Assembly (NCBI GenBank): GCA_041615815.1
Contig: JBFJCP010000051.1
Coordinates: 1 to 16,642 of the forward strand
DNA length: 16,642 bases
Direction of reading: 5' to 3'
Source of the DNA: Gemmatimonadales bacterium
GTDB lineage: Bacteria > Gemmatimonadota > Gemmatimonadetes > Gemmatimonadales > GWC2-71-9
Shown: in pieces, positions 1,215 to 16,642 of the stretch
How the letters are laid out: each line of letters opens with the position of its first letter
Position numbering within the stretch: position 1 is the first letter of the stretch
Notes under the pieces: generated by a model
Database searches by the model: none
What the model was told of the DNA's origin: nothing
Seen by the model: only the letters and a program-made list of their open reading frames with translations
Translations under genes and position numbers: made by a program

Positions 1215-1649
1215 ATGGCTGCACCAAAGAAGAAAGTCACTGCCTTTGTGAAGCTGCAGGTTCCGGCTGGGCAGGCGACACCGGCGCCGCCGGTGGGGAC
1301 GGCGCTGGGTCCGCACGGCGTGAACATCATGGATTTCTGTAAGCAGTTCAACGCCAAGACCCAGAGCGAGCCCGGGATGATCATTCCTGTCGAACTCACG
1401 ATCTATCAGGATCGGTCGTTCTCCTTCATTACCAAGACACCGCCCGCGGCGGTGTTGCTGAAGAAGGAGGCAGGTCTCGAAAAGGCGTCCGGCATGCCCA
1501 ACCGAGACAAAGTCGGGAAGGTGACGTCGGCACAGGTTCGCAAGATCGCCGAGCTCAAGATGCCGGACCTCAACGCCAACGACGTCGAAGCGGCGATGAA
1601 GATCATTGCCGGCACCGCGCGTTCGATGGGTGTCGAGGTGGAGGACTGA
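1215..1649 (+). CDS. rplK: 50S ribosomal protein L11
   Basis: [20 protein letters not shown]...[11 protein letters not shown]...KTPPAA...GTARSMG; SD GAGGAG 8 nt upstream of ATG1215. Confidence 0.99.
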
Positions 1650-2338
1650 TGGCGGGCGGGGGGAAGAAATATCGATCGGCCGCCGCCACGATCGACCGAG
1701 AGCAGCTCCACGAGCCGGCCGGGGCCGTCGCGGCCGTGAAAGATGCCGCCTTTGCGAAGTTCGACGAGACCGTGGAGATCGCCGTCAACCTCGGCGTTGA
1801 TCCCCGTCACGCGGATCAGATCGTGCGGGGGACGGTCGTGTTGCCGCACGGAACCGGGAAGACGGTCCGCGTGCTCGTGATCGCTCAGGGCGACAAGGCG
1901 AAAGAGGCCGAGGCCGCCGGTGCGGATTTCGTTGGTCCGGATTACATCGAGCAGATCAAAGGTGGATGGTTGGACTGCGATGTCGTCATCGCCACGCCGG
2001 ACATGATGGGCAAAGTGGGACCGCTGGGCCGGATTCTCGGACCGCGAGGTCTCATGCCCAATCCCAAGTCGGGGACCGTCACGATGGACGTGGGTCGAGC
2101 GGTGAAGGACGTGAAGGCAGGAAAGATCGAGTTTCGCGTGGACAAGACCGGCAACCTGCACGCACCGATTGGCAAGGTGTCCTTTGGCGCCGGGCCGTTG
2201 GCCGAAAACCTGACGGTCTTCATGGAGGCGGTCGTCCGCGCCAAGCCCTCGGCAGCGAAAGGCACGTATGTGCGTTCGGTGACCGTCTCCAGCACGATGG
2301 GACCGGGCGTTCGGATCGATCCGGCGGTGTTCCGATGA
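1649..2338 (+). CDS. rplA: 50S ribosomal protein L1
   Basis: AKFDETVE...[24 protein letters not shown]...[16 protein letters not shown]...SSTMGPG; TGATG overlap with the rplK stop. Confidence 0.99.
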
Positions 2339-2856
2339 ACAAAGGCAAGAAGATCGAGGCCGTGGATACACTCGCCACACGGCTGGCGGCGTCGCCCAAC
2401 TTCTACCTCACGGACTTCACCGGCATCGCGGTAAAGCCGATGACCCAATTGCGTCGGCAGCTGCGCGAAGCCGGCGGTGAATACGTCGTCGTCAAGAACA
2501 CATTGGCCCTGCGCGCGTTTTCGAGCACCGCGGTGGAAGGACTGGACGATCTCTTCAAGGGTCCCACGGGCGTCGTGTTTGCCGGGGCGGATCCGCTGGT
2601 TGCGGCGAAGGTCCTCGCCGAGTTTCAGAAGGACCACGAGACGCTCCTGATCAAAGCGGGGCTCATCGACGGTCGCGCCATGACGGCAGCGCAAGTGAGC
2701 CGGCTGGCGTCGCTGCCGCCGAAGGATCAGTTGATGGGGCAACTTGCCGGCACGTTCCAGGCCCCACTCCAGGGGTTCGTTGGGGCGCTCAGCGGCCTGT
2801 TGACGCAAATGGTGGGTGCCCTCGAGGCGCTCCGTCGTCAGCGCGCAAACGGGTAA
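2335..2856 (+). CDS. rplJ: 50S ribosomal protein L10 (173 aa)
   Basis: [10 protein letters not shown]...LRRQLREAG...VVKNTL...GPT...[13 protein letters not shown]2335 overlaps the rplA stop (ATGA). The 123 aa upstream in the ORF track is alternative-frame sequence inside rplA. Confidence 0.97.
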
Positions 2857-3419: not shown

Positions 3420-3437
3420 GCTGCGTGAGGATTGGCG

Positions 3438-7934
<4,497 letters not shown>

Positions 7935-12375: not shown

Positions 12376-12747
12376 ATGCCGACGATCAACCAGTTAGTCC
12401 GTCAGGGACGTAAAGCGGTTCCCAAGGTCGAGAAAGCGCCCGCGCTCAAGGGAAATCCCCAGAAGCGCGGGGTGTGTACGCGGGTGTATACCACCACCCC
12501 CAAGAAGCCCAACTCGGCGCTCCGGAAGGTGGCCCGGGTCCGGCTGACCAATGGGTTCGAGGTGACGAGCTACATCCCGGGGGAAGGACACAACCTCCAG
12601 GAGCACAGCATCGTCTTGATTCGGGGCGGACGGGTGAAGGATCTGCCCGGTGTGCGCTACCATATCATCCGGGGCACGCTGGACGCGGCCGGCGTGGCGG
12701 ACCGCAAACAGAGTCGGTCCAAGTACGGGGCCAAGAGGCCCAAATGA
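12376..12747 (+). CDS. rpsL: 30S ribosomal protein S12 (123 aa)
   Basis: MPTINQLVR...[27 protein letters not shown]...[13 protein letters not shown]...[10 protein letters not shown]; true start ATG12376, not 12262. Confidence 0.99.
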
Positions 12748-13214
12748 GCCGGCGGCAACGAGCGATCCGGCGTCCTGTCCCGGCTGACCCGCGGTATGAC
12801 AGCCAGACGGTCACGAAGTTCTTGAACAAGCTGATGTACGACGGAAAAAAGTCGACGGCTGAAGGCATTTTCTACAGCGCCATGGATCTGATCGAGCAAC
12901 GCACGGGTCAGCCGGGCGTGCAGGTGTTCAAACAGGCGGTGAACAACGTCAAGCCGGTGTTGGAGGTCAAGAGCCGGCGCGTGGGCGGCGCCACTTATCA
13001 GGTCCCGGTGGAGGTCCGCCCGGATCGCCGCACGTCACTGGCCATGCGGTGGATCATCGGGTTCACCCGCAGTCGCAGTGAGAAATCGATGCCGGAGCGA
13101 CTGGCGGCGGAGCTGATTTCCGCCTCCAAGGGTGAGGGCAACGCGATCAAGAAGAAAGAGGATACGCACCGGATGGCGGAGGCGAACCGCGCCTTTGCGC
13201 ACTACCGGTGGTAG
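12744..13214 (+). CDS. rpsG: 30S ribosomal protein S7 (156 aa)
   Basis: MSRRQRA...DGKKSTAE...[18 protein letters not shown]...[19 protein letters not shown] overlap with the rpsL stop. Confidence 0.99.
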
Positions 13215-13226
13215 CGTAGATAAGTG

Positions 13227-13432
13227 TGAGGTGCGAGGGGATGGGGTAGCCGAGCACGTGGCGGCCCCAAGCCGAGCGCCTCGAACCGGAAACCTCTAAA
13301 CGATATCCGGAGCCGCCCCCGCGGGCGCCCGGCGGTGCAGGGTTGAGACCCGGCCGAATGCGGAGCGAGACCTGTCCTGCCTCAAGGATGACGGTCGCCC
13401 CGCTTTTGTACTGCCCTGCAAGGCAGGCGTAC
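13227..13432 (+). ncRNA. Putative structured cis-regulatory RNA/leader between rpsG and fusA (family unknown)
   Basis: 254-nt non-coding spacer with six consecutive hand-folded stems, one followed by TTTT (13404-13407); no credible ORF; matches no RNA family I recognise. Confidence 0.45.
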
Positions 13433-13468
13433 CAGGAACCCGACGTGTGAGCGGAAGTGCATACAGCA

Positions 13469-15559
<2,091 letters not shown>

Positions 15560-15600: not shown

Positions 15601-16642
15601 ATGGCGAAGGCGAAGTTTGAGCGGACGAAGCCGCATGTGAATGTGGGGACGATTGGGCATGTGGATCATGGGAAGACGACGTTGACGGCGGCGATCACGT
15701 TGGTGCAGTCGAAGAAGGGGTTGGCGGATTTTGTGGCGTTTGACTCGATTGACAAGGCGCCGGAGGAGAAGGAGCGGGGGATTACGATTGCGACGGCGCA
15801 TGTGGAGTATCAGTCGGAGGCGCGGCACTATGCGCACGTGGATTGTCCGGGGCATGCGGATTATGTGAAGAACATGATTACGGGGGCGGCGCAGATGGAT
15901 GGGGCGATTTTGGTGGTGAGTGCGGCGGACGGGCCGATGCCGCAGACGCGGGAGCATATTTTGTTGGCGCGGCAGGTGAATGTGCCGTACGTGGTGGTGT
16001 TTTTGAACAAGGTGGACATGGTGGATGATCCGGAGTTGTTGGAGTTGGTGGAGTTGGAGGTGCGGGAGTTGTTGAGCAGTTATGAGTTTCCGGGGGATGA
16101 GATTCCGGTGATCAAGGGGTCGGCGTTGCAGGCGTTGGAGCATCCGGAGGATGGGGAGAAGACGGCGTGCATTCAGGAGTTGATGGAGGCGTTGGACAGC
16201 TACATTCCGGTGCCGGAGCGGGAGGTGGACAAGCCGTTTTTGATGCCGGTGGAGGATGTGTTTTCGATTACGGGTCGCGGGACGGTGGCGACGGGGCGGA
16301 TTGAGCGGGGGCGGGTGAAGGTGCAGGAGGAGGTGGAGTTGGTGGGGTTTGGGGCGGACAAGAAGACGGTGGTGACGGGGGTGGAGATGTTTCGGAAGTT
16401 GTTGGACGAGGGGGTGGCGGGGGACAACGTGGGGTTGTTGTTGCGGGGGGTGGCGAAGGAGGAGATTGAGCGGGGGATGGTGTTGGCGCAGCCGAAGTCG
16501 GTGACGCCGCACACGGGGTTTGAGGGGGAGGTGTACGTGTTGACGAAGGAGGAGGGGGGCCGGCACACGCCGTTTTTCAAGGGGTATCGGCCGCAGTTTT
16601 ACTTTCGGACGACGGATGTGACGGGGTCGGTGGAGTTGCCGG
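15601..16642 (+). CDS. tuf: Elongation factor Tu, copy 2 (truncated by window end)
   Basis: [33 protein letters not shown]...RGITI...[21 protein letters not shown]...NKVD...[34 protein letters not shown] about 7 nt upstream; open to the window end and so absent from the ORF track. Confidence 0.99.

Follow-up and report, generated by a model that had tools for sequence, protein, structure and literature searches.

A conserved three-hairpin leader ahead of fusA in Gemmatimonadales, a candidate uS8-dependent transcription attenuator

The rpsG-fusA spacer and its conserved element

Positions 1 to 16,642 of contig JBFJCP010000051.1 from a Gemmatimonadales bacterium (assembly GCA_041615815.1; hereafter the window, the whole stretch of DNA analysed) carry, by translation of their open reading frames (ORFs), the gene order secE-nusG-rplKAJL-rpoBC-rpsL-rpsG-fusA-tuf. 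The spacer between the rpsG stop, which ends at 13214, and the fusA ATG at 13469 is 254 nt long and the longest of the 11 measured, the next being 163 nt, in a comparison that uses secE and nusG starts of our own choosing. Within it lies a real, order-wide cis-acting leader, spanning 13299-13413 and composed of three hairpins, HA, HB and HC, the last running directly into a U-tract. The conserved core of HC matches the binding site of ribosomal protein uS8 in helix 21 of 16S ribosomal RNA (rRNA). Judged from its sequence, the leader may well be a uS8-dependent transcription attenuator, combining binding with termination, a reading that we hold at about even strength. The parts of the locus are as follows:

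12744..13214, + strand: rpsG (uS7), the upstream gene (ORF translation; tblastn of relatives)
13215..13298, + strand: unconserved 5' part of the spacer, outside the element (helix H1 and the 5' arm of H2 of an earlier note; none of 22 relatives reaches a similarity z > 3)
13299..13306, + strand: A/C-rich single-stranded lead-in, ACAA-like in relatives (alignments A2 and A3; an ACAA-like word, by a loose pattern, in 56 of 71 leaders)
13307..13332, + strand: hairpin HA, conserved in position and variable in sequence (pairing in 79-88% of cells, and changes on both sides)
13333..13356, + strand: hairpin HB with a bulge, its tip being H4 of the earlier note (91.9% pairing in the basal helix; changes on both sides, G-C/A-U and U-A/G-C)
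13360..13403, + strand: hairpin HC (H5 of the earlier note), with a 4-bp basal stem, one mismatch, an S8-like internal loop and a variable distal stem-loop (helix 98.6% paired; model R1)
13365..13373, + strand: 5' strand of the uS8-like core, equivalent to 637-645 of helix 21 (13369 = 641, 13370 = A642)
13391..13398, + strand: 3' strand of the uS8-like core, equivalent to 594-601 (13392 = bulged 595, 13394 = G597)
13404..13413, + strand: U-tract having a U at +9, as a rule followed by G at +10; the predicted termination or pause point
13414..13468, + strand: unconserved linker to the fusA start, including H6 of the earlier note (none of 22 relatives reaches a similarity z > 3)
13469..15559, + strand: fusA (EF-G), the first gene 3' of the leader
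15601..16642, + strand: tuf (EF-Tu), running off the contig end

The earlier note had taken the entire spacer for a structured leader of six helices (H1 to H6) with switch-like alternative folds, and every helix and alternative pairing that it named does exist in the sequence where it was placed. Comparative evidence delimits an element that is smaller than first described and different in kind. As a structured whole the spacer is unremarkable: its minimum free energy (MFE) of -105.8 corresponds to a z-score of -0.83, and 42 of 200 shuffled versions fold as well. Similarity to the spacers of relatives exceeds a z-score of 3 for 13299-13413 in all 22 of them, and in none for the flanking segments that hold H1 with the 5' arm of H2 on one side and H6 on the other. 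H2 and H3 clash with the comparative fold, which places HA and HB there, and H4 survives as the tip of HB, not as a hairpin in its own right. H5 with its U-tract is real and conserved; its GACC/GGTC pairing as first drawn differs from the comparative register and is unsupported, because it needs a G at 13369, where 34 of 71 homologues have U or A. The three alternative pairings fall with the parts on which they rely, namely H1, H6 or the variable distal portion of H5, none of which is conserved.

A search with cmscan gave no Rfam match to the spacer at the gathering threshold, only chance-level matches with E-values of 8-10, and no relevant match was obtained in the loci of 13 relatives; nor did Rfam return a ribosomal-protein leader anywhere in the window. 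The element is not a dispersed repeat, since blastn, nhmmer and model R1 each find a single copy in the source genome (G000).

Distribution across the order and attachment to fusA

We examined 96 loci upstream of fusA, 75 from the order, comprising the bacterium's own family (f1), a family inferred to be Gemmatimonadaceae (f2) and a third family (f3), and 21 from families f4, f6, f7 and f8. Hairpin HC is present in 75 of the 75 order loci and in 0 of the 21 others. Removing three duplicates and one locus of an unpublished genome (G016) leaves the set of 71 homologues, 70 of which form alignment A1 (L029, with a long insertion, was left out). The main helix of HC is paired in 98.6% of cases, and two of its pairs change on both sides in 23 of the 70 rows, which is one clade-level event. 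Its predicted folding is more stable than that of shuffled sequences, with a mean z-score of -2.4 over the 71 homologues and -2.1 in the source genome.

Model R1, built on HC, matches 143 of 151 order genomes, with one match each in 141 of the 143. Among the eight misses are five genomes with only paralogue-level fusA scores and one without a match in the genome search; in G105 and G121 fusA is present and the R1 match absent. In a class-wide sample R1 matches 43 of 44 order genomes, as against 0 of 106 from other orders (the genome tallies include the unpublished G082 and G175, on which no claim depends). A pattern scan over about 5 of the 64 parts of GTDB returned 120 matches, of which 65 have fusA directly downstream; 64 of these are labelled Gemmatimonad* and one merely 'bacterium'. 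Two further Gemmatimonadota matches are cut by contig ends, and none of the remaining 53 is followed by fusA. The labels carried by matches with the same element are Gemmatimonadales, Gemmatimonadaceae, Gemmatimonas or Gemmatirosa.

Upstream of HC, HA and HB are two more conserved hairpins with two-sided changes, HB being found in f2 as well. Alignment A3, with 37 of the 48 f1/f3 leaders, overstates their generality because its rows were picked for having HA and HB. The rpsG-fusA spacer itself ranges from 118 to 1115 nt in relatives (50 loci with rpsG in view). In L004, L008, L019, L022, L028 and L128, the variable portions of the rpsG-fusA and fusA-tuf spacers are taken up by short repeats, tandem or palindromic.

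The position of the element is set by fusA. HC ends 65 nt before the fusA start in the source genome and 21-130 nt before it in relatives, with no overlap. In f2, other DNA lies between rpsG and fusA (for example, 1115 nt in L012 and 1044 nt in L023), and the element keeps within about 30-100 nt of the fusA start; because it stays there when rpsG is separated, it belongs to fusA and not to rpsG. A promoter-like site, TTG(A/C)..TA..T, occurs 119-320 nt upstream in 20 of 23 f2 leaders, a count made without a shuffle control, and a simple scan found no promoter inside the source genome's rpsG-fusA spacer. The f2 leaders (L012:1017-1358, L023, L090-L106) are longer, have their own promoter-like site and are near-invariant in the HB region.

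These observations bear directly on what had been proposed for the spacer. A cis-acting fusA-tuf leader, probably an attenuator, is upheld by conservation across the order, the tie to the fusA start and the conserved U-tract; the 254-nt extent, the alternative folds and the ligands S7 and EF-G find no such support. A leader responsive to S7 is at odds with the f2 loci, where other DNA and a promoter-like site part rpsG from an element that remains with fusA. A 254-nt switch working through H1/H6 alternative folds in response to S7 or EF-G would have in its favor that the stems exist in the sequence. With its z-score of -0.83, its H1 and H6 regions conserved in 0 of 22 relatives and the element parting from rpsG in f2, we consider it very improbable.

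Downstream of the leader, fusA-tuf-rpsJ...rpsN-rpsH...secY-adk-map in 7 of 7 relatives lie unbroken on a single strand. In the source genome this run is split inside tuf between contigs C51 and C45, the latter starting with a tuf C-terminus followed by rpsJ ... rpsH ... secY. The tuf gene is thus divided over two contig ends (window 15601-16642; G000:C45:1-122) as a single assembled copy, which suggests duplicate tuf genes collapsed in the assembly. In two relatives, a simple scan of the stretch before rpsH, one that also misses the bulged HC, turned up no terminator-like site on the sense strand. Provided that transcription continues to rpsH, the element is a conserved structured RNA 5' of an operon that encodes its proposed ligand, as in other ribosomal-protein leaders. 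Thirteen public RNA runs had a share of at most 0.07; the four that were mapped gave essentially no cover of the spacer, with reads from other organisms.

Resemblance of the HC core to the uS8 site of helix 21

In the available text of PMC4176348, the uS8 site of 16S rRNA is described as a helix with a seven-nucleotide internal loop, containing a (G597-C643)-U641 triple, an invariant A642 and an A595-(A596-U644) triple, which the protein contacts through named Ser and Tyr residues. The source assembly lacks a 16S gene, and the 16S sequences of relatives were used for comparison. The invariant columns of the leader core in A1 are the equivalents of 639, 640, 642, 643, 644 and 596-599. The A642 equivalent is A in 71 of 71 leaders (all order loci carried the motif and none was dropped), and the G597-C643 equivalent is G-C in 70 of 70. 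The 641 equivalent is variable (G in 37, U in 32 and A in 2 of the 71), G, U and A being found there in natural 16S too and A in the Escherichia coli spc site; a prediction that 641 of the leader would track 641 of the host 16S was not borne out.

The bases equivalent to 645 and 594 are paired, as U-A, G-C or A-U, in 57 of 71 leaders (shuffled mean 32, maximum 45) and in 48 of 56 independent hairpins that were not in training (shuffled mean 35.8, maximum 43). Once they pair, a 1-nt bulge is left at 595, and the leader has the asymmetric loop of the natural site, a 2-nt bulge (641, 642) opposite a 1-nt bulge (595) with two pairs between. This register costs a median of 2.5 kcal/mol over the MFE in leaders, compared with 2.1 for the E. 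coli site. A descriptor based on the literature recovers the E. coli spc site, helix 21 in 10 of 17 relatives' 16S and 57 of 71 leaders, and, among 10650 shuffled hairpins, is matched by 5 when the same energy cost is required and by 75 once the energy filter is dropped. In the rRNA operon of one relative, helix 21 ranks first among 1612 candidate two-strand sites. The G596-C644 pair of the leader occurs naturally in 16S (81 distinct sequences), and the host S8 is an ordinary one that retains the first Ser and the Tyr, contact residues according to PMC4176348. A supported S8 core was found at the rplE start in none of 8 cases and before rpsH in none of 19 own-family genomes. On these grounds we regard specific binding of uS8 by the leader core as probable.

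Elsewhere in the order, a second S8-core hairpin, in the 16S orientation, lies directly before rpsH in 6 of 8 f2 genomes (L381, L382, L383, L386, L388, L398), where it co-occurs with the fusA element. The same hairpin is found in f4 (L354, L360) and f8 (L350, L352, L353), and its flanks could pair with the rpsH Shine-Dalgarno sequence. The idea that it is present in all groups without the fusA element held only in part (f8 3/3, f4 2/4, f6 0/6, f7 1/10). The RNA-contact motif of S8 is S-T-P in 23 of 23 f1/f3 genomes (rpsH at G000:C45:6871-7266 and its relatives), whereas f2 has S-T-S or S-T-N and the other families have S-T-S; the Pro-bearing families are the ones that have no rpsH hairpin. In f2, the leader core GGAUAC/GUCC equals the core of the rpsH-side hairpin, which suggests that both keep a preferred S8 core independently of drift in 16S.

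Hairpins with a U-tract but without the S8 loop also stand before fusA in f7 (L069-L071, L073-L077) and f8 (L065, L087). The f8 element keeps the same basal stem and tail, and those scanned gave no Rfam match. These elements are possibly attenuators with another ligand.

Termination, rival explanations and known systems

HC is a GC-rich hairpin directly followed by a U-tract, as in an intrinsic terminator, albeit with an imperfect stem. Five or six U occur in the first 8 nt after its base in 71 of 71 leaders, three of those U being required by the search pattern, and a U at +9, usually followed by G, is present in 71 of 71 leaders and in 56 of 56 independent hairpins. The pause consensus is a pyrimidine followed by G, and U+9/G+10 would fit a pause or termination point.

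We found no conserved antiterminator, upstream partners of HC varying between sequences. The candidate that RNAalifold suggested for truncated leaders of f2, a pairing of HB's 3' arm with the 5' base of HC, was rejected as too costly: its median cost is +9.3 kcal/mol in f2 (21 of 23 scored) and +7.3 in f1/f3 (35 of 48 scored), and it comes within 2 kcal/mol of the MFE of the intermediate in only 2 of 56. Since no conserved antiterminator was found, our proposal is that uS8 promotes termination by making an imperfect terminator more stable. Free uS8 would bind the internal loop as the RNA emerges, and the bound protein would stabilise a hairpin weakened by its 4-bp base, mismatch and two bulges, acting at a pause about 8-9 nt past the hairpin base. 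Termination would then rise when S8 exceeds new 16S rRNA, lowering transcription of fusA, tuf and the S10/spc genes, rpsH included. An antiterminator would be unnecessary, on the model of L4 acting at the S10 leader of E. coli. What speaks for a uS8 attenuator is the conservation, the pairing pattern, the position before fusA, the U-tract and the presence of rpsH downstream on one strand.

A number of points weigh against this reading, the first group of which concerns the likeness to helix 21. At the 595 equivalent, 52 of the 71 leaders have C and 16 have U, and natural 16S with G596-C644 has A595 in 76 of 81 sequences and C in none; the 595-(596-644) triple of the leaders therefore departs from the natural site. 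Sequence likeness to helix 21 taken alone is not significant (score 12.2, against a mean of 14.6 for the shuffled bests), and in the rRNA operon of a second relative helix 21 is outside the top 6, for which two reasons we do not use the unbiased rRNA scan as proof. The 645:594 covariation comes from few events, parsimony giving 5 changes at 645 and 9 at 594 over 53 taxa, or roughly four compensatory events by tree reading; the two bases form a G.A mismatch in 10 of 71 leaders, one clade having G.A, and the core pairs carry no covariation because they are invariant. Only 3 of 71 MFE structures adopt the 2-nt-bulge register. The descriptor was drawn up with the motif already in view and loosened once to let the E. 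coli control pass, its first form having failed that control by demanding a 638-600 pair. In f2 the leader has retained U-A at 598-640, the 16S having C-G or G-C there; all 7 f2 helix 21 sequences (L110, L112, L114, L116-L119) show the C-G or G-C pair, and the descriptor recovers none of them. The fusA site would also be redundant in f2, given the second S8-core hairpin before rpsH. A second group concerns termination and its reach: a simple terminator scan does not flag HC, prediction has the basal stem forming in the absence of ligand (P > 0.8 in 52 of 71), and co-transcription over about 10 kb from the leader to rpsH is read from gene order and the terminator scan.

One alternative, favored by the unmatched 595 triple, is that the leader is read by another protein encoded downstream (uL4, uL3, uS10, uL2, EF-G or EF-Tu), perhaps through HA-HB, its S8 likeness being coincidental or vestigial. 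Conservation extends to HA and HB, whose many invariant letters in f2 an S8 site by itself does not explain, and the f7 and f8 elements occupy the same place without an S8 loop. Yet the invariant letters and both bulges of HC coincide with the published S8 core, and the f2 leader core is that of the separate rpsH hairpin; we therefore think another ligand unlikely.

We think it similarly doubtful that uS8 binds the leader but acts after transcription, on the processing, stability or translation of the fusA-tuf-S10-spc messenger RNA (mRNA), with the U-tract as a pause or folding aid. There is a precedent, for the available text of PMC10931766 describes E. coli S8 control as translational, with retroregulation by mRNA destabilisation, and such a role would accord with the imperfect stem, a tail of just 5-6 U in 8 nt and the lack of an antiterminator. 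It is harder to reconcile with a hairpin that ends 21-130 nt before the fusA start without overlapping it, and with a U-tract placed exactly at the hairpin base in all homologues, with U+9 invariant. That HC is predicted to form unaided, and that no switch was found, would equally suit a leaky terminator or pause independent of any ligand, or a processing or stability hairpin, that fixes the ratio of rpsL-rpsG to downstream products. A plain terminator would need no invariant bulged nucleotides, however, and f2 leaders retain the element downstream of a promoter-like site of its own, a setting that offers no upstream gene to be separated; this explanation appears improbable.

The proposed uS8 attenuator has relatives of different kinds among known systems. 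With the uS8 operator at the rplE start within the spc operon of E. coli and other Gammaproteobacteria it shares the internal-loop core (PMC3616713, PMC10931766; available text), the same circular permutation relative to 16S, with the A642 strand first, and rpsH downstream. It is unlike that operator in being untranslated, in preceding fusA about 10 kb upstream of rpsH and not overlapping the rplE start or any start codon, in having its core in a hairpin with a U-tract, and in having G-C at 596-644 and C or U at 595 where the operator has A-U and A. With helix 21 as described in the available text of PMC4176348 it shares the topology of the 7-nt asymmetric loop, A642, G597-C643 and A640-U598, and the f3 16S strands have GCGAGAC and GUCGC in common with the leader; it differs in its permutation and in the third base of the 595 triple, and f2 16S has diverged at 598-640 where the f2 leader has not.

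In the L4 attenuator of the E. coli S10 operon, a bulged hairpin and NusA-dependent pausing precede L4-linked termination (PMC3616713, available text). That system likewise has a multi-hairpin leader, a long ribosomal-protein operon, a bulged hairpin and an imperfect U string, and there too a ribosomal protein is proposed to stimulate termination, so the two may be functionally analogous; ligand, sequence and position (rpsJ as opposed to fusA) differ. A premature terminator predicted in other phyla occupies the same intergenic position, a comparison made by description only; there S7 is discussed as the partner and antiterminators are predicted. We found no description of the Gemmatimonadales element in the literature located, although subscription papers or large motif supplements may contain one, and the available text and supplements of PMC7247131 hold no match for fusA or Gemmatimonad-. 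According to the available text of a 2024 review (PMC10931766), spc regulation outside gammaproteobacteria remains unknown. The leader offers an order-wide, base-resolved candidate for such control, with a named ligand and a predicted stop point.

If the uS8 attenuator is real, S8 control would reach a phylum, a place (ahead of EF-G and EF-Tu) and a level (transcription) that are all new for it, through a terminator that protein binding tunes from within the stem, and one S8 leader would govern a ribosome and elongation-factor block of roughly 25 genes. We put forward, more tentatively, that uS8 is here a termination factor: a permuted helix 21 mimic inside the terminator stem would gate the whole fusA-tuf-S10-spc block, elongation factors included, in place of the S7, L4 and S8 circuits that E. 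coli keeps separate, and would be joined in Gemmatimonadaceae by a second, translational site at rpsH.

Two features further upstream in the window deserve mention. The genes rplK-rplA and rplA-rplJ each overlap by one base (window 1649-2856), which leaves no room for an L10 leader. The RpoB ORF (window 3432-7934) encodes 1500 aa, which exceeds the usual length of RpoB, and has what appears to be an extra segment near the C-terminus.
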